Numbered from the stretch's first letter, positions 8,429 through 28,734 are shown. The stretch is DNA of 59,407 nt from a virus (IMGVR_UViG_3300042375_000244:1-59407); one strand, 5' to 3'. A program made the numbers and translations. Notes: generated from the sequence alone by a model not told the origin.

Positions 8429-8794
8429 ATGTCTATCTTGGTCGCAATCAGAGAAGAACGGGACGAACTCAAGCGCAAGCTGGAGGACATCACCCATACG
8501 CGGGACACGGAAAGCCTTCCGTTCTCCATGGCCTTTCTGTTGCCCCGGCAACTAGCCCACATTCTTCGCGCCATCTACATGGACCCGAAGGCTGTCAGTC
8601 GGGAAGAGGTCCTTGGGATTATAAGCTACACAGGACGGGTCAAGATGCAATCGACGAAGGTCGTGGATGTTGCGATCTGCCGTCTGAACAAGCGGCTTAA
8701 AGAGCACGACTTGCGTGTCAGAAATCTTCGAGGCGTTGGGTTCTACTTCAATGCAGAAGACAAGAGCCTCATCAAGAAGCTCTTGTCCGTCTAA
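8429..8794 (+). CDS. Receiver-less OmpR/PhoB-type winged-helix DNA-binding protein, CtrA-like recognition helix
   Basis: VSREEVL...KVVDVAICRLNKRL...VRNLRGVGFYF fits the OmpR/PhoB C-terminal fold; N-terminal coiled coil instead of a receiver domain. Confidence 0.8.
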   Translation: MSILVAIREERDELKRKLEDITHTRDTESLPFSMAFLLPRQLAHILRAIYMDPKAVSREEVLGIISYTGRVKMQSTKVVDVAICRLNKRLKEHDLRVRNLRGVGFYFNAEDKSLIKKLLSV

Positions 8795-8799
8795 AGCTG

Positions 8800-9144
8800 T
8801 CAGGCGTACATATCCCGCACCTGCTGGAGCGACAGGAAGGTGATCGTGGGCGACAGGTCCAGATCATCCGGCGCCGCCAAAGTCTCCCCCTCCTCGTCTG
8901 CGTCGCCAAGAACAAGGCCGTTCCCGGCAAGAGGCTGCGCCCACCCTTCCAGCATGAAGAAGTGCTGCGGGTTGTTGAGCAAGCCCTCGTCGTCAACGAA
9001 GACGCTCAGGCTGTGGCCCCCTGATTCGGCATACACGATGTCGAACAGATCGCATCCGATGTGAGTGTAGATGGTCTTGTAGTCGCCGTTGTAATCAACC
9101 GGCGTGATGGTCTTCGTCTCGGAGTCAATGAGGTAGGCTTTCAT
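8800..9144 (-). CDS. DUF3846-like phage protein
   Basis: MKAYLID...IGCDLFDIV...VFVDDEGLL...LAGNGLVLG pattern; start placed at ATG 9144 behind AAAGG. Confidence 0.7.
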   Translation of the reverse strand: MKAYLIDSETKTITPVDYNGDYKTIYTHIGCDLFDIVYAESGGHSLSVFVDDEGLLNNPQHFFMLEGWAQPLAGNGLVLGDADEEGETLAAPDDLDLSPTITFLSLQQVRDMYA

Positions 9145-9179
9145 CGCGCATAACCTTTCTGCGTTGTTGCGATGAGGGG

Positions 9180-9207
9180 AGATTAACACACCCGATAAGC
9201 ATGTCAA
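9180..9207 (-). promoter_or_regulatory. Sigma70-type promoter for the DUF3846-like gene
   Basis: TTGACA-16 nt-TAATCT on the minus strand. Confidence 0.55.
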
Positions 9208-9225
9208 TCCCCCTTCAGTCCACGC

Positions 9226-9495
9226 TTACTCTTTTATTCCGGGCCGCGCACTGCCGCCCTTGCGACCAGCCTCCACCGCCAGCTCCCGGTTCGTGGAGAA
9301 CGCACGCCGCTCGGCGGGGACGTTGTTCCCGCCCTTCCTGCCAGCCTCGCTCGCCTTGTCCCTGTTTACAGAGTACGTCCGCTTCTCCGGAGGAACCGAA
9401 AGCCCGCCACGCTGCGCAATCTCCCGAAGCCGCTCCGGCGTCATAAGCGCAAACCCACGCAAGGCCTTGGGCTTCTCAATCATTTCGTCTGTCAT
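9226..9495 (-). CDS. KGG-repeat general stress protein (YciG/GsiB-like)
   Basis: RGFALMTPERLREIAQRGG plus two NRxxAxEAGRKGG repeats. Confidence 0.85.
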   Translation of the reverse strand: MTDEMIEKPKALRGFALMTPERLREIAQRGGLSVPPEKRTYSVNRDKASEAGRKGGNNVPAERRAFSTNRELAVEAGRKGGSARPGIKE

Positions 9496-9508
9496 GCTGC
9501 TACCCCTG

Positions 9509-9835
9509 TCACTTGTCGCCAATAGCGTCCTGTATACCCCAACGCGGGCAAGGCTCGGCCTTGCCTGTGTCGCACGGCTCCTCACACTCGCAGGTAAATC
9601 TGCGAAGCAGGCTATGCAACGTCGTCAGCGTCCTCGCACTTCTTCGTGCGTCCAGATACCTGTCATTGCGACAGGTAGCCAACTCGCTCTCGCTCTTAAT
9701 CAGATCGGCGTTCAGCCCCCCAAACACATAAAGCATGTCCAACAAGACCTGCCTGTTCATGGTGATGAGGTTGCTCTTGTCGTTCACCAGCCGCTTTTGA
9801 AGTATGTCCAAAAGCTCTTTCGATGCGCTTGTCAT
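9509..9835 (-). CDS. Hypothetical protein with Cys-rich C-terminus
   Basis: Part of tightly packed leftward operon; CECEEPC...C. Confidence 0.6.
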   Translation of the reverse strand: MTSASKELLDILQKRLVNDKSNLITMNRQVLLDMLYVFGGLNADLIKSESELATCRNDRYLDARRSARTLTTLHSLLRRFTCECEEPCDTGKAEPCPRWGIQDAIGDK

Positions 9836-9836
9836 G

Positions 9837-10040
9837 TCAGGATCTCGTCATTTGTGCGTTGTCGTTCTTGTATCTGGACAGCACTCTATTCGCGTCCTCC
9901 TTCCGCACAAGGCGGCGCTCCGGCACGAAGTACACCTTGTCATGTGACAGACTCACCAGACGTGAGTCCGTGCGCTCGACTTCCTCGGGCGACTTAACAC
10001 TGACCACGGTCCTTCTGTTTGCGTGACTGACCATTATCAT
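9837..10040 (-). CDS. Hypothetical protein
   Basis: Leftward operon packing; 4-nt overlap with upstream gene. Confidence 0.55.
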   Translation of the reverse strand: MIMVSHANRRTVVSVKSPEEVERTDSRLVSLSHDKVYFVPERRLVRKEDANRVLSRYKNDNAQMTRS

Positions 10041-10414
10041 TTGCCCTCATCCCCCTGCGGCTGCGGCGGGGCGGCACGTATGACAGGGGCCAGCTTTGCC
10101 GCCATCGCCTTGATGTCCGCCTCCTCACGGTCCAACGTCGCACCCAATTCCGCGTCAGCAAACTGTCCCGCCAGCGCAAGGTAATCAATGCCGTTCAAGA
10201 CGCTGTTCAAGTTGCGGAAGCTCTTCTTCATACGCGCCATCTCGTAGCTGTGCATAAAGATCGAAGCCTCATACAGGCTCAAGCGCGTGCCAGTAATGCT
10301 CTCGAAAATCCTGCAAGCGCGGTCCATCACGTCCTCCTCCGTGCCATGCTGCTCCGAGCGTGTGCGAAGAAGTGTTGCAGATTGCGCCAAGATGTCTTTG
10401 TGATTCATACCCAT
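10037..10414 (-). CDS. DUF6378-like phage protein
   Basis: ILAQSATLLRTRSEQHG...RIFESITG...YEASIFM...ARM...IDYLALAGQ pattern. Confidence 0.65.
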   Translation of the reverse strand: MGMNHKDILAQSATLLRTRSEQHGTEEDVMDRACRIFESITGTRLSLYEASIFMHSYEMARMKKSFRNLNSVLNGIDYLALAGQFADAELGATLDREEADIKAMAAKLAPVIRAAPPQPQGDEGK

Positions 10415-10418
10415 GTTC

Positions 10419-10550
10419 CTAATCCTTCTTGATGGTGTGCTTGCAGGTTACGCATTTCCAAGTGTTGTCGTGTAGGTTGTAGACAACCGCATGGCCTCTT
10501 CTCTGGTGCATGAGGTAACACCAAAACCCTTTCAAAGCGTCGAGTATCAT
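10419..10550 (-). CDS. Small hypothetical protein (43 aa, CxxC)
   Basis: Manual translation MILDALKGFWCYLMHQRRGHAVVYNLHDNTWKCVTCKHTIKKD; exactly fills the gap, ATGA coupling. Confidence 0.55.
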   Translation of the reverse strand: MILDALKGFWCYLMHQRRGHAVVYNLHDNTWKCVTCKHTIKKD

Positions 10551-10936
10551 CTTGCGATCTCCGCTTCTATCTGACCACTGACCATTGAAAACATTCCTTG
10601 GCCCAAATTGTTTCTGTCATCGTTGAGCACGTTCAACGCCTCGCCGTCCAACAGGATCGCGCAACACGCCATGACGTGACCGAGATGATGCACGCCGCTG
10701 TCAGGCGCATACGTCTCGCCATCAAACCACGCCATCAAATGACGCATTGCTGCATCGTAATATACAGACGAACTAACAGTATGCTCGCGCCAGTTCATGC
10801 GGCCATACTTCTGTTCGCCGTCCATCATCGCGTGCGCTAAGTGTAATAGCGCAGTGGTTGGAACACATGACATTGAAGGCTTTCTTAATCCTAATACTGT
10901 CTTCGGGTTGTCGTCGGGGTAAGTATGCTCTGTCAT
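10547..10936 (-). CDS. dATP/dGTP diphosphohydrolase-domain protein (DUF5664-like)
   Basis: NPK...K..MSCVP...GEQKYGRMNWR...YYDAAMRHLMAWFDGE...DSGVHHLGHVMACCAILLD signature. Confidence 0.85.
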   Translation of the reverse strand: MTEHTYPDDNPKTVLGLRKPSMSCVPTTALLHLAHAMMDGEQKYGRMNWREHTVSSSVYYDAAMRHLMAWFDGETYAPDSGVHHLGHVMACCAILLDGEALNVLNDDRNNLGQGMFSMVSGQIEAEIAR

Positions 10937-11169
10937 TTGTGCCTGTCTCCCAAGGGTTTCTCTTCGATCACCAGCTTCGACGTACCCAAGTGAGTTCGAG
11001 GTGCTGACAGAAAACGCATACCAAACTTAATACTACGAGTTCGTATTACTTGCGCTGTCATCGTTGTATCCAACGCATCAATAACATCCTGTATCGTTCC
11101 ACCACTTCTAAATATCTTTCGAACCTTCATGATTTCTTCAGAGGTCCAATCGGGATAAGTTATTCTCAC
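10933..11169 (-). CDS. Small HTH protein, GcrA N-terminal-like
   Basis: DWTSEEIMKVRKIFRSGGTIQDVIDAL...AQVIRTRSIKFGM resembles the WT.E...G.S...IA..L HTH of GcrA. Confidence 0.5.
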   Translation of the reverse strand: MRITYPDWTSEEIMKVRKIFRSGGTIQDVIDALDTTMTAQVIRTRSIKFGMRFLSAPRTHLGTSKLVIEEKPLGDRHK

Positions 11170-11384
11170 CTTGATCTCCTTCTCTTAAATCCCCAGCGCA
11201 CGATTGCACTCATGCGGCCTTTCTCCCGGTTGCAGAAAACCATTGGGCGTATGACCAGATCTCGGTTTCTATTAATCACGCCGATGATGACATTCTTGGT
11301 TATTCCTCCCATCCGGCGCACAATATCCCGTGATGCAATGCCGTCGTTCCACAGCCGGATGATCTCAGCGTTTCTTTCGTTCAT
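11166..11384 (-). CDS. Stand-alone GcrA N-terminal domain protein
   Basis: IIRLWNDGIASRDIVRRMGGITKNVIIGVINR closely follows GcrA LW..G.SASQIA..LGGVTRNAVIGKVHR. Confidence 0.75.
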   Translation of the reverse strand: MNERNAEIIRLWNDGIASRDIVRRMGGITKNVIIGVINRNRDLVIRPMVFCNREKGRMSAIVRWGFKRRRSR

Positions 11385-11547
11385 GCCCTGTCTCCACATA
11401 GACACACGCTGTCTTGCTGCTCTTGGCGCACGACGGGCATTTTGAGGCGTTTATAGCTTTGATAACATCATCAACGTCTATCGGCATGTCTGACACGTCG
11501 TAGATCGTCCCGCACTTGCAGATCAAACGCAGCTTGTCATCGCTCAT
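11365..11547 (-). CDS. Small zinc-ribbon protein
   Basis: CKCG...CPSC; AGGAGG RBS. Confidence 0.6.
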   Translation of the reverse strand: MSDDKLRLICKCGTIYDVSDMPIDVDDVIKAINASKCPSCAKSSKTACVYVETGHERKKR

Positions 11548-11774
11548 CTGTTCCCCTCCTTCAGTGCATCCGTCGCAGTCCCCCGCATGTGGACCGCCAA
11601 CCCCCAGATCGTAGTGCGGTCAGGTATCTCCGCGCCGACTGGTGTCTCAGCAATGGAATGGAGGGCGTATTCTAAATGCTCGATGCGGTCGGCTGCGTGT
11701 TTCGTGTCGCCAATGCTGGCGCTCAATCCCGAAGCTAAATCGCGCCGCAGCCGCGTTACAAGATCGTCAGTCAT
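11544..11774 (-). CDS. Hypothetical protein (MTDDLVTRLR...AADRIEHLE type)
   Basis: GAGGAG RBS; N-terminal pattern common in alphaproteobacterial phage accessory genes. Confidence 0.7.
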   Translation of the reverse strand: MTDDLVTRLRRDLASGLSASIGDTKHAADRIEHLEYALHSIAETPVGAEIPDRTTIWGLAVHMRGTATDALKEGNR

Positions 11775-12108
11775 CTGCCGTCTCCTCAACCATTATTTTT
11801 TTTGCGCGCAAAGTTCTCGTGGAGAAAAACCCGTCATGCTCGGGGTTATTGCGCATCCACAACCGCCCATAGTATGCCCGGTAGTTGTTGTTTAACTTGT
11901 ACTCTTCACCTCGTGTCTCGATAACTGTAAACCACCGCATCCGTTCAAAGATCGCACCTACTCCAAAATTTCTCCTGTTAGCGTAAGCCGCTTCAATGGC
12001 GAACCTGCTAAACAGCGAATAAACCTTCGGGTTGATCTCGTGGAAGGTCCAAAATTGGGCCTCTAGCATGTTCTTTGGTCTGTCAGGTGTTCCAAGATCA
12101 TCGCTCAT
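11767..12108 (-). CDS. Phage hypothetical protein
   Basis: FHEINPKVY...IFERMRW...YKLNNNYRAYYGRL...FF pattern; GGAG RBS. Confidence 0.7.
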   Translation of the reverse strand: MSDDLGTPDRPKNMLEAQFWTFHEINPKVYSLFSRFAIEAAYANRRNFGVGAIFERMRWFTVIETRGEEYKLNNNYRAYYGRLWMRNNPEHDGFFSTRTLRAKKIMVEETADD

Positions 12109-12326
12109 CTACCGTCTCCCCATGCAGCATTGCACTTCACACATTCCTTGAGCGTCTTGCTCCGCAACTCATAGCCACGGGCCAGCAAAACCGTGCCGCA
12201 GTCGCACAAGCAACGCCATATGGACCCCGAGCGTTCCTGCAACGTGCGCTTGACACGCGCCCGCTCGACCACCGTCAACCGACCATAGCGGTTGCCCGTC
12301 TCGTCTTTGAATTGGGCGATGCTCAT
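12105..12326 (-). CDS. Small protein resembling the N-terminal zinc-binding domain of HNH/AP2 homing endonucleases, without nuclease domain
   Basis: KDETGNRYGRLTVVER...WRCLCDCG...L.S...C motif. Confidence 0.6.
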   Translation of the reverse strand: MSIAQFKDETGNRYGRLTVVERARVKRTLQERSGSIWRCLCDCGTVLLARGYELRSKTLKECVKCNAAWGDGR

Positions 12327-12925
12327 TCGCCCCCCTCTTTCATCTCACTGTTGGGCATGCCCCTATAAAAGTTGCGCCTCGGGCTGGGCTTATCCCTCCG
12401 ATAGAACATCCGATTGTAATGCTCTTGGCAGTAAGCCTTCTGATGATCGCGCACCGTTTCCGACGCGTCCAAGCCACAGTAAATCCGGAAGCCGTCGTTC
12501 GTGACAGATTCCAAAGGGTAATGGCACTCGTCATACCCAAGGTTCAGCACAGTCTTGGCCTTGGCGTTCTTCGAGAAACAAAACGCAGAGGATTGCAGAT
12601 ATGCAGAATCGGACGCCGCTGGTGGGGTGGTCGCCGCCGCAGGAGGAACCGGACGCACGAAAGCCCCCTCCCCATTTCGTGCGGGCTCTTGCTTTACACG
12701 CCGCCCCTTGCGGGCCAGAGCTGGATTACGGATCGTGGCCCGCAGGTCCCCCTGCAACCGCGCCCGCATTACAATGCCGATCACCTTGTTGCGGGTAATG
12801 TTGAACTCAGCCGCAATCTCGGTGCTCGTGTACAACGGACCATGGAACCCTGACCACATATTCAGGACGCGACCACGCATGTCCTCGTATTCCGCGTCCT
12901 TGCCAGTATTCTTCAGCTCAGGCAT
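12323..12925 (-). CDS. gcrA: GcrA cell-cycle regulator homolog
   Basis: N-terminal TSTEIAAEFNITRNKVIGIVMR; Pro/Ala linker; C-terminal VLNLGYDECHYPL...YCG...AYCQEH, matching the two-domain GcrA layout. Confidence 0.85.
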   Translation of the reverse strand: MPELKNTGKDAEYEDMRGRVLNMWSGFHGPLYTSTEIAAEFNITRNKVIGIVMRARLQGDLRATIRNPALARKGRRVKQEPARNGEGAFVRPVPPAAATTPPAASDSAYLQSSAFCFSKNAKAKTVLNLGYDECHYPLESVTNDGFRIYCGLDASETVRDHQKAYCQEHYNRMFYRRDKPSPRRNFYRGMPNSEMKEGGE

Positions 12926-13328
12926 GGCCGATCTCCTCCACGTTTGGATAAACGTACCGCCCCTTGCCATCGTCCGCGCCAAGCGTCTCTAAATACAAAG
13001 TCGCCATCATCTTCACGAACTCCGGAAGCTTCTCCCACTCGCTGCCTTGAGCCTTCCAAATCGCACAGAGCTGCTCAACCATCGCTATCGTGGCCGCGTT
13101 CATAATCACAATTCGCTGGCCGTTCTTGCTCTTCGCGCCAACAATGTCCGGGTTCTCGTCCAGAAACTGAACGACCTTTTGCATCGTTCCAGCGACCACG
13201 GCACAAATAATCGACGTCGAATGTTCCATAGGCGTCATGTTGGACGGGCGCTCCCCAATGAAGGCGATCTCTATTTCAACCGAAACCACCGGGTCAGACT
13301 GGAAGTCGGCTTCTTTGTTAGTGACCAT
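12918..13328 (-). CDS. Hypothetical protein
   Basis: Leftward operon packing; 136 aa. Confidence 0.6.
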   Translation of the reverse strand: MVTNKEADFQSDPVVSVEIEIAFIGERPSNMTPMEHSTSIICAVVAGTMQKVVQFLDENPDIVGAKSKNGQRIVIMNAATIAMVEQLCAIWKAQGSEWEKLPEFVKMMATLYLETLGADDGKGRYVYPNVEEIGHA

Positions 13329-13752
13329 GGCTCACTGTCCTTGTGTTGCAATAAGGCTTCTGCTTTAGCTTCGACCGGACGCCCGCAGGCTCAAACCGGG
13401 CAAACTCACCACGCGAATAGCGCGGGCAGTCCAAGGCCTTCCCCATCGAAACCATCGAGGCGTTCAAGGAGCGGCTGTCAGAGGTGTAACAATGCGCCAC
13501 AGGGCGTCCGTGGGAGGGGTCGCCTACTGGGAAGCACCTGACGGCTAGGGAGTTCTTGAGGAGCAGGCGTAGGGCGTCCCTAGCCGCCTTGCCGTTGGGT
13601 TCGTCCATCTCCTCGGCGTCGATGCCGTACAGGCGCACGCTTCGTCCTGCAAAATAGAGGGTGTCGCCGTCGTAGGCGGTCGGGTAGCCCTCTATCGCAG
13701 CCGGGGTGCCGTACAGGCTTGCACACAGACCAAGGACCATTGTGCAGAACAT
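13318..13752 (-). CDS. Thermonuclease (SNase-like) with hydrophobic N-terminus
   Basis: YDGDT...VRLYGIDAEE...DPSHGRPVAHC...LNASMVSMGKA motifs. Confidence 0.85.
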   Translation of the reverse strand: MFCTMVLGLCASLYGTPAAIEGYPTAYDGDTLYFAGRSVRLYGIDAEEMDEPNGKAARDALRLLLKNSLAVRCFPVGDPSHGRPVAHCYTSDSRSLNASMVSMGKALDCPRYSRGEFARFEPAGVRSKLKQKPYCNTRTVSHGH

Positions 13753-13985
13753 CAGAGTTCTCCGGTGTCAGAGTCGCGACGACCGAACGCTGACCACGCG
13801 TCGTGCCCGTCCTCCCGCCAGTCGAAGGCAGTGTCGTCCATCTCGTTGGCTACAGCTTCAGCTTGTTCGAGGGCAGCATCCACGTCAGAAGCTGACACCA
13901 TCAACACATGCTGGAGCCTGACGGTACGCTCAACCACGATTGCAAAGACAGGGGTGGACTTAGAGGCTTTGGGCTTGGTCGCCAT
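13752..13985 (-). CDS. Hypothetical protein
   Basis: Start MATKPK behind GAGG; VSASDVDAALEQA pattern. Confidence 0.6.
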   Translation of the reverse strand: MATKPKASKSTPVFAIVVERTVRLQHVLMVSASDVDAALEQAEAVANEMDDTAFDWREDGHDAWSAFGRRDSDTGEL

Positions 13986-14254
13986 TACGCGTTCCTCTTC
14001 GTGAACAACAAGACAGGCTTGGTGTCGTCGTGACGGTGCAGGGTAATCAGGTCCTCGTCGTGGATTACATGCCACGGGGCAGGGGAGGCGGGTCTGCTGT
14101 CCGGATTCTCAACAAGACAGTTCTCAAGGACGCGAACTATGTCGGCGCGGCCACACGCCCGCGCACTGAACAAAACCATCAGGGCGGCGGCTACGTCGGC
14201 TAGTTCGGAGGAGGAGAGGTGATCGATCTCCCCTTTTTTGGTTTCGAAGTCCAT
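13985..14254 (-). CDS. Hypothetical protein, first gene of leftward accessory operon
   Basis: AAAGGG RBS; TAATG coupling to next gene. Confidence 0.6.
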   Translation of the reverse strand: MDFETKKGEIDHLSSSELADVAAALMVLFSARACGRADIVRVLENCLVENPDSRPASPAPWHVIHDEDLITLHRHDDTKPVLLFTKRNA

Positions 14255-14403
14255 GGTCCACTGCCCTTTCTAAGTCGGTGGTTCGGATCGGTTGCCGTAT
14301 TACGGCTATATGAAGATAAGCACAGTCTCAAGGGCAACGCAAGGGGGTTTGGAGGGTTTTTCAGGGGGAGGGGCTTCGGTGGGGGTTGCTATAAGGGGAA
14401 AAC

Positions 14404-14557
14404 ATATATTGAAAATATAGTCTGTAAGTGTCTGAGTATACGGATATAGTTGGAATAACGTCATGCGCGAAAAAAAAAAAAAAAAAAAACGCTCCCCGGC
14501 CCAATATTTCACTATATCCGTATACTCAATGACTTACAGACTATATCGCCAATATAT
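14404..14557. repeat. AT-rich long inverted repeat flanking an A20 tract (candidate origin or packaging site)
   Basis: 14415-14450 and 14511-14546 are reverse complements at 33/36 positions, extendable with ATATATT; A-tract 14470-14489 between them. Confidence 0.85.
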
Positions 14558-14736
14558 ATAGTGGGCTTAGGCAAAGTGGGGCGCGCGGCCTGAAAGCGGG
14601 CTTGGGCGTGGCGCTAGACTAACTTTTGTGGAATAAAAGGTGCCTGTTTCTTAGGCATGTGCTGTCAGGCTTGCGTTCGTCGAGCTGTCAACGTATGTTG
14701 ATACCTCGATTTTGAACGGACCCCGGAGGTGTAAGC

Positions 14737-15435
14737 TTGGCTTCGTCAGACCCGAAACGACGCATCCCGATCACGGCCCTAAGGGTCATGGGTGAGCGGG
14801 CTTATGGACTAACGGCAAAGCAGGAGACCTTCTGCTTGAACTATGCCGCTGGCAATATCACGCAGACGGAGGCGGCGCGCCGGGCTGGGTTTTCGAACCC
14901 GGCTTTTGCTGCGTCACGGTTTCTGAACGGGCGCGACTACCCTCACGTCCTGCGCCGGATTGTGGAGCTGAAGCACGAGCTGTCACGCCGGTTCGAAGTG
15001 ACCTTTGAGAACCATGTAAAGAAGCTGGCAGAGATGCGAGACATGGCCTTGGCTGACAAGAACTACTCTGCTGCCATCGCGGCAGAGAAGAACCGTGGTC
15101 AGGTGGCCGGGCTGTATATCGCACGGCACGAGATCATGATCGGCAAGATCGACCAGATGAGCCGCGAGGAGGTGCTGGCCGAGATTGAGAAGCTGCATCA
15201 GGAATACCCTGCTCTCGCGGCAAACCCAGCACCCAAGCAAGACCTGTCACTGATCGAGGATGTAACCTTTGAAGAAGTCCTTGAACCCGTCCCCGATGAG
15301 GTTGGACATGAGCCGGACCGCCAAGAGCCTGAGTACCGAGGCCGGACTTTGGAAGAGCCTCCAAACCGCGACGACGAAGATGGTCCATTGGACGAGGATC
15401 GAAGCCCGCGTAGGCGCTGGCATCCCCGACCTTAA
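14737..15435 (+). CDS. terS: Terminase small subunit
   Basis: LTAKQETFCLNY...TQTEAARRAGFS HTH; AAIAAEKNRGQVAGLYI; start uncertain (TTG 14737 or ATG 14788). Confidence 0.8.
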   Translation: MASSDPKRRIPITALRVMGERAYGLTAKQETFCLNYAAGNITQTEAARRAGFSNPAFAASRFLNGRDYPHVLRRIVELKHELSRRFEVTFENHVKKLAEMRDMALADKNYSAAIAAEKNRGQVAGLYIARHEIMIGKIDQMSREEVLAEIEKLHQEYPALAANPAPKQDLSLIEDVTFEEVLEPVPDEVGHEPDRQEPEYRGRTLEEPPNRDDEDGPLDEDRSPRRRWHPRP

Positions 15436-15739
15436 CGGCGCGATGACGGACCTTGAGTTCTGGCTGGAGCTGAAGGTCGTAAAAACTGTCAGCTTCAAGA
15501 CCGAGGGCTTGTGGAGACCCGCACAGGTGGCGTGGCAGATGAAGCGCGCCGCATCCACGCCTGACAGGATCTGGAATCTTGTCAGCCACCCGGCGGGCCA
15601 GTCTGTCAGATTGTACCGGGGCGACAAGGTGATGAATCTAAACCGTGGGATGGACGCGGTGACGGACTTTGAAACGCACCTTCCTCCGAACTGGTTCGCG
15701 ATGTTGGATTTCATCCGGAGGCGTAATGACAAAACGTAA
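15308..15739 (+). CDS. PD-(D/E)XK nuclease, Holliday junction resolvase/VRR-NUC-like
   Basis: EAGLW...TRIE...GIPDL...FWLELKV...PAQVAW motifs. Confidence 0.75.
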   Translation: MSRTAKSLSTEAGLWKSLQTATTKMVHWTRIEARVGAGIPDLNGAMTDLEFWLELKVVKTVSFKTEGLWRPAQVAWQMKRAASTPDRIWNLVSHPAGQSVRLYRGDKVMNLNRGMDAVTDFETHLPPNWFAMLDFIRRRNDKT

Positions 15740-16106
15740 CCCTGTCAGCTTTAGCATAGCTGTGCCGCAAGATTTTTATGATTTCATGAACGTGGCAATC
15801 ATCCACGCAAGGCAGACCCGCAACATCAAGATCTCAAGGCGGCGCGTCTGTCTGGCGTCAGGTCTGTCACACGCGACCCTGTTTGAAGCGGAAAAGCGCC
15901 AGCGCGACCTGTCTTTTGGAACGATCATACGATGCTGCACGGTGCTGGGATACGAACTCAAACTTGTCAGGTTGCCGCCGCCACGCGCGATTGCGGAATA
16001 TGACGAGGCAATCCGAGAGCGGCCCGGCGCGCGCAAGAAAAAGCCGACCGGAGGCGTGAACTTTTTCAAAAAGAAAAACACCGCACCTCCGGAAGAGGCG
16101 CGGTGA
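15726..16106 (+). CDS. XRE-like HTH DNA-binding protein
   Basis: ISRRRVCLASGLSHATLFEAEKRQRDLSFGTIIRCCTVLGYEL; basic tail. Confidence 0.65.
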   Translation: MTKRNPVSFSIAVPQDFYDFMNVAIIHARQTRNIKISRRRVCLASGLSHATLFEAEKRQRDLSFGTIIRCCTVLGYELKLVRLPPPRAIAEYDEAIRERPGARKKKPTGGVNFFKKKNTAPPEEAR

Positions 16107-16172
16107 CGGTCGGTTTCCAGTGAAAGGGCGCGGTGACGGTCGATTCCTAAGGGCGCGGTGACGGTCGATTCC
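16097..16172. repeat. Three direct copies of a ~22-bp unit GGGCGCGGTGACGGTCGATTCC
   Basis: Copies at 16097-16118, 16126-16147 and 16151-16172, where two transcription units converge. Confidence 0.85.
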
Positions 16173-16362
16173 CAGAGGGCAGGCTATGGCGAAGGTGAAG
16201 CTCGGCCTCGCGCGCGTCCGCGTGAAAGGCCAGCGTGCCGGAGGGCGTCAGGCTGCGCCATTGCTGGCGCGTCGGGGAGTAGGCGAACCAACCTAGTGCG
16301 TCGCCGTTGTCGGCTGTTACGATGCTCGGTTCTTGGTCGCCGTTGTGTGCGTTCTCGTCCAT
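16147..16362 (-). CDS. Small hypothetical protein (putative early)
   Basis: MDENAHNGD start behind the repeated CAGGAGACCTATCCCATG leader. Confidence 0.65.
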   Translation of the reverse strand: MDENAHNGDQEPSIVTADNGDALGWFAYSPTRQQWRSLTPSGTLAFHADAREAELHLRHSLPSGNRPSPRP

Positions 16363-16622
16363 GGGATAGGTCTCCTGCGCCTTCGGCGCGTTAGTAGGGG
16401 TGGGCGCGTTGCTCAGGCTTCGCACGTGTCCCACGGTGCGCCGCAGGCCTCCGCAAGCTCGTTGTTTGCGTCAAGGGTGCGTATCCGTTCAAGCAAAGCT
16501 TCGCGGAGCATTTCGGACGTAACGTCCGAAGCGTCCTCGCGATCCGTCTCCAATGAGAAAGCAAGTTCGAAAGCGTGGTTGAAGCGGGCCATGGGATAGG
16601 TCTCCTGCGCCTCTGGCGCGTT
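16359..16622 (-). repeat. Duplicated ~34-bp RBS leader upstream of two small genes
   Basis: CCATGGGATAGGTCTCCTGCGCCTnnGGCGCGTT at 16359-16392 and 16589-16622. Confidence 0.85.
16413..16592 (-). CDS. Small acidic hypothetical protein (59 aa, putative early)
   Basis: Not in ORF track; manual translation MARFNHAFELAFSLETDREDASDVTSEMLREALLERIRTLDANNELAEACGAPWDTCEA behind AGGAG. Confidence 0.7.
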   Translation of the reverse strand: MARFNHAFELAFSLETDREDASDVTSEMLREALLERIRTLDANNELAEACGAPWDTCEA

Positions 16623-16671
16623 GTCTGGGGGTGTGGGTGCGCCCGACGATTGCCGGGCGCTGGTGGGCTTC

Positions 16672-17598
16672 CTAGGCGGCCTCCTGAACGGGCGCGCCGC
16701 CGTGTTCCTTGAGCATGGTTTCCAGCCACAAGGCGGGGTTCTTGATCGTTGCGTCGTCCATATGCGCCGCGCCGATATAAAGGCTGGCGGCTGCGTCGGG
16801 GATTGCGCGGGCTAGGATTGCGTGCGCGTGCGCGCGGATTGCGTCTTGGCCTCCCCTGTACGGCCAGTGTAGATTTTGCGTGTCTACTGGCGCGCCCGTG
16901 ACTTCATAGGCTGCGCCATAGTATAGGCTCCGCGCCGTGCTGGTGTGGCATAGCATGTGCGCTGCGCGGGCAAGGTCCAGCGGGGCGGTGTCCATACGCG
17001 TGAATATGTGACAGGCGTCATGGCGTCGCTGGTCCCGCAGATGTCCCGCCGTTACGCTGACGCCAACATATAGCGAGACCGGGCGGGCGGCTGACAGAAG
17101 GCGCACGAGCGCCAAGATTGCGGCGCCTCGCTTTTCAAGGTCAACGCTGTCGATGCCTGCGCTGCTGGCAATGTCCACAATGATTGCGAGCGGTGCTTGG
17201 TCGCTGCTGATGCGCTGACGCTGACGCATTGCCAGCGGGTGGCCTGCCAGTGCTGCCGGGACGCACGGGACGCCCCCGGCGACTGCTGCAACCGTGCGCC
17301 AGCGCCGCGAGACTAGGTGCAAGGCCTCGAAGCGGGTCAAAAACTCATCGGAGCGCGCGACAATGGCGGGGTTTCCCTCGCGGAGGCAGCGCATGCTGGC
17401 GTCGAATGACAGCCCGCCGCGCCACGCGTCGCCCTTGTCCGAACGGGCGGGGCGCGCCTTGTTGACGCTCTTGAAAAGCGTCGCCGTCTGCGTCATGTCG
17501 CCAATGGCGTATGTGTCGAGCGTCGTCTTGCATCCATCGCGCGCCGCTATGGCGTCGATTGCAGGAAGCGTGAACTTGTGCATCTTAGACCCCCTCAA
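16672..17598 (-). CDS. VWA-like partner of MoxR AAA ATPase
   Basis: VPAALAGHPLAM then LAIIVDIASSAG (MIDAS-like) and RGAAILALVRLL; adjacent to the AAA gene; true start may be the MHKF Met. Confidence 0.65.
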   Translation of the reverse strand: MRGSKMHKFTLPAIDAIAARDGCKTTLDTYAIGDMTQTATLFKSVNKARPARSDKGDAWRGGLSFDASMRCLREGNPAIVARSDEFLTRFEALHLVSRRWRTVAAVAGGVPCVPAALAGHPLAMRQRQRISSDQAPLAIIVDIASSAGIDSVDLEKRGAAILALVRLLSAARPVSLYVGVSVTAGHLRDQRRHDACHIFTRMDTAPLDLARAAHMLCHTSTARSLYYGAAYEVTGAPVDTQNLHWPYRGGQDAIRAHAHAILARAIPDAAASLYIGAAHMDDATIKNPALWLETMLKEHGGAPVQEAA

Positions 17599-18976
17599 TC
17601 ATGCGGCGCTGGTCGGCGCTCAACCCGGCGAGATAGGTTAAGTCGGCTGCTTCGTCGCTCGTAAAGCCCGCAGCGATAAGTGCCGCGCCCGCTTGCATCT
17701 GGCGCAAGTCAATCAGATGCTTGAGACCCACGGCGCGGGCGCGCTCGCGTGCTGCTTGTACGCGCCGCGCAAATGCCGCATCGCCAGAGATTGCAACCTC
17801 CAGCGCCGGGTCTGCATCCCACTGGAGCTTGACCGGAAAGCGTGACAGAAAAGCAGCGTCGAGGCGATTGCGCCCGACAAAATCAGCCGTCGCGCCTGTC
17901 CCGTGCGTGTTACCTGCGCCGATGATGACGCAATCCCGATGCCGCGCGACCATACCATCAGGAAAGCCCGCATATCCGTTCGCGAGCGCCGCGTTGAGCG
18001 CCAGCGTTACGCCTGCATCCCAGCTATCAAGCTCATCAAGGATAACCAGCCCGCCCTTTTCAAACGCATCCCGGAAAGGCGTCCGATGTGTCCGTCCGTG
18101 CGCGTCCGTAAAGCCCAAAAGCTCATGCGACATGCTCATCGCGCCGTGCGCGTAGTACTCCAGCCCAAGCGCGCTCGCTACCTGATGCGCCGCGTGGGTC
18201 TTGCCGGTGCCGGTCGGCCCGACTAACATCGCGTTTGGCGTATAGCCTGAGGTCATACGCGACGAGCATGTGCGGAGTAGGCGCGCAAGCTGCGGGTGCG
18301 TGTGTCCCTCGGTTTTGCCGGTTGTGCCGTCGTGCCGGGCAACCTCGATCCGGACGGTCTGCACGTTCTCAAGGCGGCGCTCGACGATGCGCGTAATCTC
18401 GGGCGCCAGCGCGCCGAGGATGTGCGGCAACACCATCGCGCCAAGTGCTGCGCCTGCCGGGTCGGCGGCTGTCACGGCTGCATCTGGCACGACTGCCGGA
18501 GGCGTCGTGGTCGTGGTCGTGGCCGTCTGCGCCTGTCCTGTTTTCGCGGCGCGTGCCGCCTGTCCCTGTTCGGTGGCGCGTATTAGGCACATATACTGCG
18601 CCGACGTTGCCGCGCCGTTTTGTTTGTTTTGAACCGTGTCAATTATGCTGTCACATTTGACGTTCTCCGCGCCGTCCCATGGCAGGAAGGAGCGGATCTC
18701 TCTGTAACCTTCAACGGCTGCGGCAAATGTCGCCGCGTCTATGTTGCGTTCCTTCATGTTGTCCTCCTGCGTTGTGGTGTTGCTCGCCTCTGCTGCTGCG
18801 AGCACGGCGTAGATGTCAATTCCAAGAGCCTTGCAGGCTGCAATGCACTCTGTCGTGCCAAGGCTGCTGGCGTCCAATCCGTGTTCGCGCCGGTAGGCGG
18901 TCCAGCCGTGGTGGCTGGTGATCGCCCGGCGCACGATTGATCGGCGCGCTACTCCTAAAATAATCTGGTCGCTCAT
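17585..18976 (-). CDS. MoxR/CobS-type AAA+ ATPase
   Basis: LVGPTGTGKT, VILDELD, LNAALANG, IIGAGNT, GRNRLDAAFLSRF. Confidence 0.88.
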   Translation of the reverse strand: MSDQIILGVARRSIVRRAITSHHGWTAYRREHGLDASSLGTTECIAACKALGIDIYAVLAAAEASNTTTQEDNMKERNIDAATFAAAVEGYREIRSFLPWDGAENVKCDSIIDTVQNKQNGAATSAQYMCLIRATEQGQAARAAKTGQAQTATTTTTTPPAVVPDAAVTAADPAGAALGAMVLPHILGALAPEITRIVERRLENVQTVRIEVARHDGTTGKTEGHTHPQLARLLRTCSSRMTSGYTPNAMLVGPTGTGKTHAAHQVASALGLEYYAHGAMSMSHELLGFTDAHGRTHRTPFRDAFEKGGLVILDELDSWDAGVTLALNAALANGYAGFPDGMVARHRDCVIIGAGNTHGTGATADFVGRNRLDAAFLSRFPVKLQWDADPALEVAISGDAAFARRVQAARERARAVGLKHLIDLRQMQAGAALIAAGFTSDEAADLTYLAGLSADQRRMIEGV

Positions 18977-19008
18977 GACTTACCCTTTCTCGGCTTAGTC
19001 TACGGTTC

Positions 19009-19038
19009 ATCCTATTTCAGCGCCGCGTCGGCTGTCAA
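19009..19038 (-). promoter_or_regulatory. Sigma70-type promoter for the AAA/VWA cassette
   Basis: TTGACA-18 nt-TAGGAT, about 30 nt upstream of AAAGGG RBS and ATG 18976. Confidence 0.65.
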
Positions 19039-19190
19039 CCAAATTGGATGCTGATTTTTAAAAATGTTGGTCAGCATCACTGACCTAACTAACTCCCAGC
19101 CCCGCCCCCTCATCTCCGAACCAAATCCACCAGGTCAGTCCACCTGGTCGCCGGTCCAAGATCCCCTCACCATTGCGCCCGGTCCGTGAT

Positions 19191-19355
19191 CTGTCAGCCG
19201 GTAATCTGACAAAAGCCCCACGATTATCTGACACCGATCTGTCAGCCGGCAAACTGTCAGCGTCTTGTCACCGGCCCACGCCCCCTGCTGTTCTGTCAGT
19301 GGTCGATGATCGACGGAGGCTGTCAGGCTGTCAGCGGCTGTCAGGCGGCTGTCAC
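19191..19355. repeat. Array of 11 TGWCA pseudo-palindromic motifs, most as CTGTCAG
   Basis: TGTCA at 19192, 19240, 19255, 19266, 19294, 19321, 19329, 19339, 19350; TGACA at 19207, 19229. Confidence 0.85.
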
Positions 19356-19386
19356 GGGTCCCTTGCCCCTTGACCTCTGCCCATGG

Positions 19387-19402
19387 TGTAACGTTATAAC
19401 AT
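19387..19402. promoter_or_regulatory. Zur/Fur-family-like operator
   Basis: TGTAACGTTATAACAT; reverse complement ATGTTATAACGTTACA resembles alphaproteobacterial Zur boxes as recalled. Confidence 0.35.
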
Positions 19403-19608
19403 AGGCGACCCCCCTAAACGGGGCGCGTCGCGCACGGACGCACATATATCACTGTTTGTCTCGCTAAATCAGCAACTTCCAGAGGTCCATGGTCCAGGTA
19501 CAGTTTACTCCGGTTTTCCAAACCCCCACCCAACCACCTCTGCAAACCTCACCCCCGTAAACCAAACAAACCCCTCAAGGGACCCTACCCCCACCCCCAT
19601 CAAAAAAA

Positions 19609-19624
19609 TGTTTCACGTGAAACA
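19609..19624. promoter_or_regulatory. parS: Perfect chromosomal-type parS site
   Basis: TGTTTCACGTGAAACA, exact 16-bp consensus palindrome, extending to 18 bp (19608-19625). Confidence 0.85.
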
Positions 19625-19743
19625 TCGGACGGTGGTCAAATCTGCGGGATCTTTTTGCAATCACCATCCTGCTCTGCCCACGGCCCTCTAACCTTTACTT
19701 CTTAACCTTTTGTAAGTAGAACAAAGGTTCACGGAGATCTCTC

Positions 19744-21210
19744 ATGTCTGCATTGGAATTACTGCCTGATGAGGCTGCCAAGCGGTACGCGCAGCTTTTG
19801 GACCGTGCTGTTAAGATGACGAAGCAGGAGACGGCGCGGGAGAGCTTTATTGATTACGTGAAGTACGTGTGGCCGGGATTTGTGGCCGGGCGGCATCATA
19901 AGATTGTTGCTGACAAGCTGGAGCGTGTGGCTCGTGGCGAGTTAAAGCGTTTGATTATCAACATGCCGCCAAGGCATACGAAGTCTGAGTTTGCGAGCTT
20001 TTTGTTTCCCTCGTGGTTCATTGGGCGGATGCCGACGAAGAAGATCATGCAGGCGACGCATACTGCGGATTTGTCGGTTCGGTTTGGCCGCAAGGTCAGG
20101 AACCTGATGGACGGCGAGGACTACCATCAGGTGTTCCCGCAGGTGAAGTTGAGGGCGGACAGTAAGGCTGCTTATCGGTGGGAGACGGACGACGGCGGCG
20201 AGTATTACGCGGCGGGTGTTGGGTCGAACATTGCGGGTCGCGGCGCTGATTTGTTCATTGTGGACGACCCGCACTCGGAGCAGGACGCGCTATCGCCGAC
20301 GGCTTTGGATGCGGCGTGGGACTGGTATATGTCGGGACCTCGGCAGCGGTTGCAGCCGGGCGGGGCGATTGTTGTGGTTATGACTCGTTGGGGCGACAAG
20401 GACCTGACGGCGCGTTTGCTCAAGCAGCAGGCGACGGACCCGAAGGCTGACCAGTGGGAGATAGTCGAGTTTCCGGCGATCTTGGACTCTGGCAGATCTC
20501 TGTGGCCGGAGTATTGGAAGCTGGAGGAGTTGGAGAAGATCCGTGCGTCCATCAGTTCGTCGAAGTGGCAAGCGCAGTATATGCAGCAGCCGACTTCTGA
20601 CACGGCGGCGATTATCAAGCGGGACTGGTGGCAGATTTGGGAACCGGAGAAGGTGCCGCGTTTACAGTATGTTATGCAGTCTTACGATACGGCGTACCTG
20701 AAAACACGGACCTCTGACTTTACGGCGATACAGACGTGGGGTGTGTTTTACCCGAAGGAGGACTCGGGGCCGAACGTGATTCTTTTGGACGCTAGGAAAG
20801 GCCGGTGGGAGTTTCCTGAGCTGAAGCGGATTGCGTATGAAGAGTACAAGTATTGGGAGCCTGACACGATTTTGATTGAGGCGAAGGCTGCGGGTATGCC
20901 TCTGACGCAGGAGCTGCGGCAGATGGGAATACCTGTCGTGAACTTCTCGCCAAGCAGGGGCAACGACAAGCACGCGCGTGTTAATGCTGTAGCGCCTATG
21001 TTTGAGTCTGGTTTAGTGTGGAGGCCGGACGCTTCGTGGGCGGAGGAGGTCGTAGAGGAAATCGCGGCCTTCCCGTTTGCCGATCATGATGATATGGTCG
21101 ATTGTGCTACGCAGGCTTTGATGCGGTTCCGGCAGGGCGGGTTTGTGTCCCATCCTGATGATTACCAGATGGACGACGAACCACGGTCCACCAACAGGGT
21201 ATACTACTGA
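19744..21210 (+). CDS. terL: Terminase large subunit
   Basis: INMPPRHTKSE, GRGADLFIVDDPH, VVMTRW, QSYDTA, HDDMVD motifs. Confidence 0.95.
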   Translation: MSALELLPDEAAKRYAQLLDRAVKMTKQETARESFIDYVKYVWPGFVAGRHHKIVADKLERVARGELKRLIINMPPRHTKSEFASFLFPSWFIGRMPTKKIMQATHTADLSVRFGRKVRNLMDGEDYHQVFPQVKLRADSKAAYRWETDDGGEYYAAGVGSNIAGRGADLFIVDDPHSEQDALSPTALDAAWDWYMSGPRQRLQPGGAIVVVMTRWGDKDLTARLLKQQATDPKADQWEIVEFPAILDSGRSLWPEYWKLEELEKIRASISSSKWQAQYMQQPTSDTAAIIKRDWWQIWEPEKVPRLQYVMQSYDTAYLKTRTSDFTAIQTWGVFYPKEDSGPNVILLDARKGRWEFPELKRIAYEEYKYWEPDTILIEAKAAGMPLTQELRQMGIPVVNFSPSRGNDKHARVNAVAPMFESGLVWRPDASWAEEVVEEIAAFPFADHDDMVDCATQALMRFRQGGFVSHPDDYQMDDEPRSTNRVYY

Positions 21211-28389: not shown

Positions 28390-28616
28390 TGGGGTTATTG
28401 TTCAGTCCTCTGGGCAAGTACATCCTTATAGGGGGCGTGGTCTTGTCTCTTTTAGGTGGCGTCTACCTCAAGATACGAGGTGACGCCATTGCAGAAGTTA
28501 CCGCAGCGGCGCAAGCCGACGCACTGAGGAGGGTACAAAATGCGATCAGTTCTGGGGATAATGCTGCTGTCAGTCCTGACAGGTTGCTCGAATCTGATGG
28601 GCACAAAAGAGACTAA
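28386..28616 (+). CDS. Inner-membrane spanin (Rz-like)
   Basis: N-terminal TM followed by helical segment; follows endolysin; overlaps lipoprotein gene. Confidence 0.7.
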   Translation: MMGLLFSPLGKYILIGGVVLSLLGGVYLKIRGDAIAEVTAAAQADALRRVQNAISSGDNAAVSPDRLLESDGHKRD

Positions 28617-28734
28617 CCTGTCAGCCTGCTCGGTCTGGAGGGATGTGTCGTGGTCTTCCAAGGACACAGCCCAGACAATTACAGAGGTCAAGATCAACAA
28701 TGCCCGTCGTGAAGGGTATTGCGAGAAGAAGTAA
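28540..28734 (+). CDS. Outer-membrane lipoprotein spanin (Rz1-like)
   Basis: Signal peptide with lipobox LTGC; overlaps the Rz-like gene in another frame. Confidence 0.75.
   Translation: MRSVLGIMLLSVLTGCSNLMGTKETNLSACSVWRDVSWSSKDTAQTITEVKINNARREGYCEKK

Follow-up and report, generated by a model that had tools for sequence, protein, structure and literature searches.

A host-type parS site upstream of terL and a set of GcrA-family genes as probably separate features of an apparently lytic HTVC023P-like podophage

Host-type parS sites of the virulent Bacillus phages phi29 and Nf are reportedly read by the host protein Spo0J, as Meijer et al. are said to have described in 2005. For virulent phi29, the sections of PMC2731898 that treat these sites give their number as five and name host Spo0J as the protein that reads them. 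Among phages of alphaproteobacteria, a GcrA homolog is described for Caulobacter phage phiCbK (gp222) and its relatives in the pertinent part of PMC3556154, and two 'GcrA-like proteins' appear in the annotation of brucellaphage Y17 as presented in PMC11836647. The relevant passages of PMC7403470 cover how the domains of GcrA are arranged and that GcrA binds sigma region 2.

The DNA analysed here, called the window, represents a complete virus record of 59.4 kb (IMGVR_UViG_3300042375_000244, 59,407 nucleotides) and is kin of the HTVC023P-type podophages. [quoted passage not shown] Because the cultured relatives have Pelagibacter, Roseobacter, and Caulobacter as hosts, the host of the window phage is likely an alphaproteobacterium. 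The original prediction joined the GcrA homolog, two small helix-turn-helix (HTH) genes, a CtrA-like winged helix, a parS site, and a GANTC-free zone into one toolkit, with which host ParB would place the phage DNA and transcription governed by CtrA, GcrA, and CcrM would be rewired or evaded. We favor another reading and regard it as probable: that these are separate host-interface features (a GcrA set, an orphan parS, and an OmpR-type regulator, with the GANTC gap due to chance) of a lytic HTVC023P-like alphaproteobacterial podophage, not one coordinated system. The parS site is the strongest part of the observation.

Table 1 Features of the window considered in this study, with coordinates counted from its first nucleotide.
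Feature	Coordinates	Strand	Remarks
Stand-alone OmpR/PhoB-type winged-helix protein, 121 aa, without receiver domain	8429..8794	+	Pfam Trans_reg_C; profile match to 2m1b_A
78-aa protein, probably no more than a GcrA-type DNA-binding domain	10933..11169	-	Transitive similarity to G002 GcrA homolog
79-aa protein, GcrA DNA-binding domain only	11166..11405	-	PDB 5yiu_A, E 4.1e-6
Full-length GcrA homolog, 200 aa from ATG	12323..12925	-	Pfam GcrA 47.4 bits; PDB 7ye1_G, E 2.3e-7
GANTC-free stretch, judged not a feature	16172..20381		4215-nt gap
Iteron- or operator-like cluster of seven CTGTCAG heptamers, within the intergenic region that also contains parS	19191..19344	+	Kept in L003, partly in G061
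C-rich block with A-tract, conserved, abutting parS on its upstream side	19576..19608		Kept in window, L003, and G061
Perfect host-type parS, TGTTTCACGTGAAACA	19609..19624		Exact 16-bp match, 120 bp upstream of terL start
terL, encoding the large terminase subunit and opening the rightward structural block	19744..21210	+	Pfam Terminase_6C and Terminase_6N

The full-length GcrA homolog that had been predicted is well borne out by profile and structure-database matches. Its open frame continues past the ATG at 12925 to a TTG at 12982 (12323-12982, minus strand), and this longer frame matches Pfam GcrA (PF07750) well above the cut-off of 26.9 bits, over profile positions 22-149 of 155. The match to the Caulobacter GcrA chain 7ye1_G extends over both domains (residues 53-194). 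The alignment, which runs over residues 21-151 of that chain, shows that the 200-aa protein has the N-terminal helix-turn-helix DNA-binding domain; it takes in the chain's C-terminal domain as well, and 5yix_B is matched weakly (E 0.08). All 17 metagenomic homologs (174-206 aa) start with MP at the position of the ATG, in agreement with the start proposed earlier. They conserve the N-terminal helix-turn-helix and a C-terminal Cys/His-rich domain, and the Cys/His positions are kept in 18/18 members of the family. Among close relatives these full-length genes are strongly diverged, the window protein being 36% identical to that of G061, the closest complete relative, and giving a pairwise E of 0.23 with that of G002. 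In this protein a linker lies between the DNA-binding domain and a C-terminal domain resembling the sigma-interacting domain of GcrA. We infer both its binding and its benefit: it may act as a sigma-70 cofactor supplied by the phage, holding RNA polymerase on S-phase-type or phage promoters or redirecting it to them.

Two stand-alone GcrA-like HTH genes had also been proposed, and we recover both, the 79-aa protein through HMM and PDB matches and the 78-aa protein through transitive similarity only. The 79-aa protein matches the GcrA DNA-binding domain in 5yiu_A over residues 8-46 and NCBIfam sig70cofacGcrA at profile positions 5-42 (E 1.3e-5), and it scores 23.5 bits on Pfam GcrA, below the cut-off given above. 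The 78-aa protein has no match in Pfam, PHROG, NCBIfam, or PDB; it aligns over 46 aa with the N-terminal domain of the GcrA homolog encoded by G002 (43% identity, pairwise E 2e-8), for which the PF07750 score is 52.6 bits. In the protein atlas, the cluster closest to the 78-aa protein is one of GcrA domains (score 0.90, taken as a lead only), and the single-sequence fold of the protein is poor (pLDDT 55). It is probably a GcrA-type DNA-binding domain and nothing more. [quoted passage not shown]

The winged-helix gene immediately follows the DNA polymerase gene. As a single sequence, its product matches Pfam Trans_reg_C (PF00486) with an E of 3.2e-4 and 21.2 bits, under the 26.2-bit cut-off; its family profile (A3) matches the stand-alone chain 2m1b_A with an E of 1.6e-5, and through that profile the Trans_reg_C recognition helix and wing are found. 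Its 28 homolog clusters are 121-130 aa long, and PF00486 is recorded for 6/28 in precomputed tables. The best NCBIfam matches are to the C-terminal parts of PhoB, TctD, and TorR, with RpaB among the matches too; none of the ten NCBIfam models listed is a CtrA model. The match is confined to the effector domain (residues 54-107), a receiver domain with its phospho-acceptor Asp is absent, and the window holds no CtrA box (TTAA-N7-TTAA). Of the "receiver-less CtrA-like winged helix" proposed originally, the OmpR/PhoB type and the lack of a receiver stand, and the CtrA label is not supported. Homologs occur in G061, G059, and G002. We suggest that it is an OmpR-type regulator belonging to the phage itself and passed down together with the replication module.

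GANTC sites are absent between positions 16167 and 20382, where 6.6 are expected, across a stretch that takes in a DUF7192 gene, a CobS-like AAA+ gene, and the intergenic region and that reaches into terL at its 5' end. The coordinates of the zone proposed originally are correct; its significance is not upheld, given that the largest-gap p is 0.049-0.053 and that the homologous zone in G061 contains seven GANTC sites, and we rejected the gap as a feature. It would be due to chance. Genome-wide, the observed/expected ratio of GANTC is 0.46 under a mononucleotide model and 0.67 under a Markov model, a depletion close to that of CCNGG (0.47). A link to GANTC methylation, the mark of the promoters that GcrA prefers, is not supported either: no adenine methylase (N6_N4_Mtase) was found in the window, and non-coding DNA shows no enrichment of GANTC (10/103 sites, against 7.8% of bases).

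We consider it unlikely that these elements form one toolkit. In favor of such a system, the winged helix, GcrA, and parS are common to the window, G061, and G059 in the same order and at the same spacing, GcrA and parS lying about 6.6 kb apart, and a functional link among the three may exist within this lineage. The concept also has a precedent, as phi29 pairs its parS with sites for the host master regulator Spo0A in the sections of PMC2731898 concerned, and under the mononucleotide model GANTC shows the strongest depletion among 16 comparable palindromes. Against it, in addition to the missing CtrA signal and methylase and the marginal, unconserved GANTC gap, both small HTH genes are missing from G061 (tblastn), and the parts occur singly. 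Of 12 genomes that are either complete or at least 90% complete, two contain both parS and GcrA, two parS only (G010 and HTVC027P), two GcrA only (G002 and GB2A), and six neither (Fisher one-sided p 0.41), and the two genomes with both are close kin. This split does not support co-occurrence of parS and GcrA; independent distribution among relatives had been named beforehand as an outcome that would refute the toolkit. What remains of the proposed toolkit is its GcrA-family genes, a host-type parS that is not due to chance, and a likely alphaproteobacterial host; the CtrA label, the GANTC zone, the methylation link, and the co-occurrence fall away.

The parS site at the center of our preferred reading of separate features is an exact copy of the 16-mer that we take to be the bacterial parS consensus palindrome, as had been claimed. 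It is the sole parS site within three mismatches in the window, and about 1e-5 such sites are expected per window by chance. The window and G061 (TerL 92%) share a conserved island around it in an intergenic region that has otherwise diverged, and the C-rich block and A-tract are likewise conserved in the window, L003, and G061 while the intergenic DNA around them has diverged. The first 10 nt of this block form one arm of an inverted repeat (I5) with positions 19356-19365. An orthologous perfect parS is present in G061 and G059; the sister strain L003 (94% identical) has a one-mismatch version with a central C-to-T change, conserved no better than its surroundings.

To sample relatives more widely, we used TerL as the family marker. 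In a first sample, parS was absent at 78/79 loci. A TerL-profile sample of 80 loci, selected regardless of parS, included 74 with at least 100 nt upstream, and 11 of these contained parS with at most one mismatch (8 perfect, 3 with one mismatch), in each case 27-137 nt upstream of terL. About 0.0006 such sites are expected by chance in both samples pooled (153 loci); the recurrence of parS upstream of terL in these related marine phages is not a chance event. The one-mismatch versions, TGTTCCACGTGAAACA, TGTTTCACGTGAAACC, and GGTTTCACGTGAAACA, presumably correspond to natural chromosomal parS variants. In six parS-bearing lineages TerL is 60-87% identical and the flanks cannot be aligned. The parS-bearing tips are scattered over the TerL tree, where no fewer than 10 changes are required to account for 14 carriers; with shuffled labels the number averages 13.5 and never falls below 10. 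Either parS is gained and lost rapidly, or recombination affects the upstream region. The complete relative G010 has three parS sites, one of them about 130 nt upstream of terL. The site is absent from G001-G005, HTVC023P, 023Pt_psg01, DSL-LC04, CRP-902, and GB2A and, being missing from most relatives, is therefore dispensable.

We find it decidedly unlikely that the palindrome is instead an operator through which a protein encoded by the phage regulates the late or packaging promoter, and that its identity with parS is a coincidence. Its fixed position before terL, the conserved promoter-like blocks that it adjoins, and the several HTH proteins encoded by the phage would suit an operator, but 16/16 positions equal the bacterial consensus even where TerL is only 60% identical, the one-mismatch versions look like those of chromosomes, and relatives have further sites in other parts of their genomes, close to or within portal and Cpn10-like genes. 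Moreover, no tested regulator gene tracks the site, the winged helix being absent from G010, G006, G007, and HTVC027P. Very improbable is a neutral passenger, taken from host DNA or arisen by chance and persisting without function, since the single copy in the window, the patchy distribution, and the mutated site of L003 have to be set against an expectation of about 1e-5 per genome and against recurrence at one position in many diverged lineages, as a perfect site amid diverged flanks.

Under the reading of separate host-interface features, the parS would be served by the host. Neither ParB nor ParB_N was found in the window, no ParA-type family is among its Pfam hits, and ParB_N was not found in G006-G010; with no ParB on the same replicon, the window's parS is an orphan. 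As 0/50 parS-bearing IMG/VR records encode a ParB, host ParB, which the original proposal also invoked, is the likely reader. The ddrB-ParB domain of a 2250-aa protein is absent from 13/13 relatives, four of which carry parS. Host ParB would bind the orphan site, load, and spread on the phage DNA in a CTP-dependent manner. Of three conceivable benefits, we rank as likeliest that the host segregation machinery positions or passes on unpackaged phage genomes, as in phi29; second, that many phage copies soak up ParB, such that host segregation and division stall; and third, that ParB regulates the late or packaging promoter next to the site. The fixed position before terL could point to a local promoter role instead of a segregation role. 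To our knowledge, Pelagibacter, Roseobacter, and Caulobacter do not sporulate; any benefit to phages of such hosts must therefore differ from the spore entrapment of phi29.

Each of the three features has a counterpart among known systems. The recognition helix and wing motif of the phage winged helix match those of stand-alone Trans_reg_C proteins (PDB 2m1b) and of OmpR/PhoB effector domains, whereas CtrA, itself an OmpR/PhoB response regulator, differs from it in its receiver, in its specific sequence traits, and in its box, which does not occur in this genome. The full-length GcrA homolog has the two-domain layout of Caulobacter GcrA (PDB 5yiu, 5yix, and 7ye1; as laid out in the portions of PMC7403470 that concern it), with sequence matches to both domains. 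It is longer (200 versus 173 aa), and the best score of the three GcrA-type proteins on the NCBIfam equivalog NF050816 is 40 bits, far below the cut-off of 280. As the available descriptions of phiCbK and Y17 indicate, Pfam GcrA-family proteins have been annotated in alphaproteobacterial phages before, including more than one per genome; the window phage differs from these in belonging to another virus family, that of the HTVC023P-like podophages, and in combining one full-length gene with two that encode the DNA-binding domain only. For parS, the phi29 account cited above describes five sites in a phage of a sporulating host, with entrapment in the spore as the known use, whereas here a phage known from its sequence has one site (one to three in relatives), held just upstream of terL. 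The window phage, with no ParB, no integrase, and lytic relatives, is nonetheless of the phi29 type (virulent, with a host-type parS and no partition genes), and as that account describes for phi29 and Nf, a lytic phage devoid of partition genes would here carry a host centromere sequence through which a host ParB-family protein acts on phage DNA.

The perfect parS site that the original prediction had placed in this phage is confirmed: an exact 16-mer lies 120 bp before the start of the terminase large subunit gene (terL), in a 767-bp divergent region between an AAA+ gene and terL. It is the sole window site within three mismatches of parS, and the expectation is approximately 1e-5 per window. 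The window comprises the whole 59,407-bp virus record, which has overlapping ends and a completeness rating of 100%, and its portal shares 47-49% identity with the counterparts in the Pelagibacter phages HTVC023P and HTVC027P and in phage 023Pt_psg01, compared to 33-41% for portals of Roseobacter, cyanobacterial, and Caulobacter phages. No integrase, ParB N-terminal domain, or N6/N4 methylase was found in the window, tRNA and Rfam scans of it gave no match, and nucleotide and GcrA-protein searches of a named phage collection likewise returned none.

Coordinates of the features discussed (window positions unless another record is named)
Feature	Position	Strand or direction	Remark
CTGTCAG clusters	114-549; 19191-19344; 28567-28624		
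Primase, UvrD-type helicase, family-A DNA polymerase genes	1.4-8.3 kb		
Winged helix	8429-8794		121 aa
Small-gene block	8.8-14.3 kb	leftward	
dATP/dGTP diphosphohydrolase, N-terminal domain	10547-10936	-	PF18909, 94.8 bits
78-aa gene	10933-11169		
79-aa gene	11166-11405		
Full-length GcrA homolog	12323-12925		200 aa
terS and two small genes	14.7-16.1 kb		
DUF7192 and CobS-like AAA+ region	16.1-19.0 kb	leftward	
DUF7192 and CobS-like AAA+ ATPase (phrog_249) pair	16672-18976	-	
Inverted repeat, 10 nt	19356-19365; 19576-19585		GGGTCCCTTG / CAAGGGACCC
parS	19609-19624		exact 16-mer
terL	19744-21210		
Structural block	from 19,744	rightward	terL, then portal first
2250-aa protein	52382-59134	+	ddrB-ParB domain at residues 657-775 (PF18763, 90.7 bits)
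Reverse-orientation match to window terL region	L003:1-325		
Repeat array in G002	L014:9459-9716		
HTVC027P apparent open frame	L227:2719-2990 (record 16218-16489)		
GcrA-profile frames in Caulobacter phage GB2A (W06)	28973-29251 (profile 2-94); 18343-18504		

Several other elements occur in the same region. The heptamer CTGTCAG is present in 62 copies on both strands across the window, compared to 8.8 +/- 2.8 in shuffled sequences (largest value 17), and seven copies lie 270-420 nt upstream of parS in a cluster that is kept in L003, a strain 94% identical to the window, and partly in G061, the closest complete relative; this set may represent iterons, operators, or an origin. A perfect inverted repeat encloses 210 nt just upstream of parS, with both arms conserved in L003 and G061, while in other carriers GGGNCCC-type motifs are found beside parS or the terL start. 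The neighboring DUF7192 and CobS-like AAA+ genes form a pair that is kept in G061. The short reverse-orientation terL match at the start of L003 is probably an assembly artefact.

To assess how widely this site is distributed, we combined searches that depended on parS with others that did not. The first 80 TerL relatives sampled yielded a similar site in L003 alone, where it carries a central C-to-T change. An IMG/VR scan for the perfect 16-mer returned at least 137 stretches, and of 80 loci fetched from these, eight encode a TerL 54-63% identical to that of the window, with the site mostly 18-128 nt before terL; three further loci have homologs of the portal or of other structural proteins. 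Across six of the parS lineages the TerL proteins are mutually only 60-87% identical and the upstream DNA is unalignable, and the site is perfect in each. In a sample selected independently of parS (the best 80 of at least 600 family stretches in a TerL profile search), the 74 loci with at least 100 nt of upstream sequence contained eight perfect and three one-mismatch sites, all located 27-137 nt upstream of terL. Taken together, 12 of the 153 loci in the two TerL samples, which were not de-duplicated and have at least one contig in common, carry parS, compared to approximately 0.0006 expected.

Individual genomes illustrate this pattern further. The complete relative G010 (TerL 61% identical) has three parS sites, one of them roughly 130 nt before terL, and the fully syntenic G061 (TerL 92%) retains an orthologous parS within a conserved island, the remaining intergenic DNA having diverged. 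The cultured pelagiphage HTVC027P has a 15-of-16 parS near terS, inside an apparent open frame that is annotated as intergenic; by eye, this frame resembles the window protein at 15269-15739. On a phylogeny of 120 non-identical TerL proteins, from which identical sequences, matches under 420 aa, and loci having less than 100 nt upstream had been left out, 14 parS carriers fell in at least three separated places, and their distribution required at least 10 changes, compared to a mean of 13.5 for shuffled labels, which suggests frequent gain and loss of parS or recombination of the upstream region. Orphan parS sites seem to be widespread beyond the HTVC023P-like family; several parS-bearing IMG/VR records (L107, L147, L118, L151, and L163) have 3-5 perfect sites within 1 kb, and some are roughly 15 kb in length with inverted terminal repeats. 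The parS of the window is a recurrent, position-specific element, unaccompanied by a ParB gene, in an abundant phage family, and it is of greater interest than could be known from this one sequence.

As parS is normally bound by ParB, we considered which protein might read it. The ParB N-terminal domain missing from the window is also absent from the relatives' genomes G006-G010 and from all 50 of the parS-bearing IMG/VR records searched (L084-L163, a subset of the 72 listed). The 2250-aa protein contains the window's only ParB-superfamily domain, of the ddrB-ParB type, which we rejected as the parS reader: none of 13 relatives has this domain, four of these being parS carriers, and the same search detects the window copy. 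The protein itself looks polyvalent and is possibly injected. The evidence therefore points away from a phage-encoded reader, and since none was found, host ParB would be the most economical candidate.

The original prediction had grouped parS with GcrA-like genes, a CtrA-like winged helix, and a GANTC-free zone in a single toolkit for the host cell cycle. The full-length GcrA homolog holds up, with a Pfam score of 47.4 bits and a match to Caulobacter GcrA (7ye1_G, E 2.3e-7) over residues 53-194 that spans both the DNA-binding and the C-terminal domains. It has 17 metagenomic homologs (50-94% identity, 174-206 aa, PF07750 in all) that share the predicted ATG start and conserve both domains. 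Of the two small genes predicted to be GcrA-like, the 79-aa one corresponds to the GcrA DNA-binding domain alone (5yiu_A, E 4e-6; Pfam 23.5 bits, under the cut-off). The 78-aa protein matches no family directly and is not significantly similar to either the 79-aa or the full-length protein; it aligns with the GcrA homolog of the relative G002 in the N-terminal domain (E 2e-8), and among atlas clusters the nearest to it is one of GcrA domains (0.90), so that we regard it with moderate confidence as GcrA-type. AlphaFold2 models built from the single sequences of the 78-aa and 121-aa proteins (pLDDT 55 and 40, respectively) were too poor for searching. Beside these genes, the window encodes the N-terminal domain of a dATP/dGTP diphosphohydrolase, an enzyme type tied to modified-base pathways.

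Neither the GcrA protein nor its alignment retrieved related loci from viral contigs, and because the sole match among genome contigs was weak and irrelevant, the host could not be inferred from GcrA. Homologs in relatives were missed by tblastn of 26 window proteins against the 80 TerL loci and were recovered by Pfam search. In Caulobacter phage GB2A the GcrA profile hits two separate frames, one of which matches the C-terminal part only (profile positions 103-153, E 0.0014), a pattern that suggests split GcrA domains. The GcrA trio offers natural full-length and DNA-binding-domain-only variants for dissecting subversion of a sigma-70 cofactor.

The winged helix belongs to a conserved stand-alone protein family (28 clusters) whose profile hits 2m1b_A, a stand-alone Trans_reg_C chain (E 1.6e-5); the single sequence is under the Pfam cut-off. 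The proposed likeness to CtrA is unsupported: the best NCBIfam matches are effector domains of PhoB, TctD, TorR, and RpaB, no CtrA-specific signal was detected in the protein, and TTAA-N7-TTAA is absent from the window. The gene adjoins the polymerase gene and is also present in G061, G002, and a further relative, G059; it would most simply be the phage's own regulator. The window's GcrA homologs and its OmpR-type regulator are real and ordinary; GcrA homologs have been reported in phiCbK-like phages (PMC3556154) and two GcrA-like ORFs have been annotated in a brucellaphage (PMC11836647).

The GANTC-free gap of 4,215 nt is real, but its status as a feature did not survive. A gap this long arises in approximately 5% of random placements of the 103 sites, whether or not these are weighted by local composition, and the homologous stretch of G061 contains seven sites; the zone is treated here as chance. 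Across the window, the 103 GANTC sites compare with 226 expected under a mononucleotide model or 155 under a Markov model, making GANTC more depleted than any other among 16 comparable palindromes, albeit barely (0.46 vs 0.47 for CCNGG), and non-coding sites are not enriched (10/103 vs 7.8% of bases). A left-end cluster of four sites in 300 nt was also rejected as a feature (p 0.71). In G002, which has GcrA and no parS, the corresponding intergenic stretch before terL is occupied by roughly 10 tandem repeats spaced every 26-30 nt, each with a GAATC, a GANTC site (12 sites in approximately 420 nt); this could be a methylation-sensitive iteron array.

We then examined whether these parts occur together in genomes whose completeness is 90% or more. 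Both parS and GcrA are present in the window and G061, only parS in G010 and HTVC027P, only GcrA in G002 and GB2A, and neither in G003, G004, 023Pt_psg01, DSL-LC04, HTVC023P, and CRP-902. The association among these 12 genomes, a non-random set in which G010 was found via parS, G061 via the winged helix, and the rest via TerL or portal, gave a one-sided Fisher p of 0.41. Both elements are also present in G059. Because G061 is closely related to the window and has its gene order, their agreement counts as one event, and tblastn did not find the two small GcrA-type genes in G061. The elements are thus distributed largely independently, a pattern that the original prediction had itself taken as counting against it, and a single co-occurring toolkit is unsupported. 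As the winged helix, GcrA, and parS are co-inherited in the window's lineage, a functional link may nonetheless exist there.

Among the matches listed in our literature searches for orphan chromosomal parS sites on lytic phages, nothing relevant appeared. A precedent is nevertheless known in the virulent Bacillus phage phi29, which has five parS sites by means of which host Spo0J aids entry of the genome into the prespore (PMC2731898). The main texts of papers on HTVC023P-type and CRP-901-type phages make no mention of parS, ParB, or GcrA (PMC9599517, PMC10149686). That the site keeps its place before terL may point to some connection with late expression or packaging, for which the literature searched offers no published model.

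To our knowledge, the cultured hosts of the HTVC023P-like family do not form spores, and the benefit of parS must therefore differ from that in phi29. We rank first the inheritance or placement of unpackaged phage genomes, which host ParB might promote; second would come titration of ParB by many phage copies, and third a late promoter controlled through ParB. This last option suits the constant location of parS ahead of terL, yet compact genomes have few other non-coding places. Our broadest reading, tentative and on balance doubtful, is that parS, lying 30-140 nt upstream of terL, has been gained repeatedly as a cis-element under selection and loads host ParB onto phage DNA across widespread lytic marine and freshwater HTVC023P-like podophages, including the 15-of-16 site of HTVC027P, possibly tying late transcription, packaging, or what becomes of unpackaged genomes to host segregation, and that in the window's lineage it is combined with phage GcrA sigma cofactors that hold the host replication-competent.

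If host ParB truly loads at these sites, lytic phages that rank among the most abundant in the ocean would exploit the bacterial centromere system while encoding none of it, and spore entrapment, the only known rationale, would be inapplicable. This raises the questions of whether a lytic phage might place, silence, or hand down its DNA through ParB, and whether many parS copies might stall host segregation and division. A lytic phage with a host-type parS is already known in phi29, and the site described here is a variant of the phi29 kind, but one found in a family with spore-less hosts.
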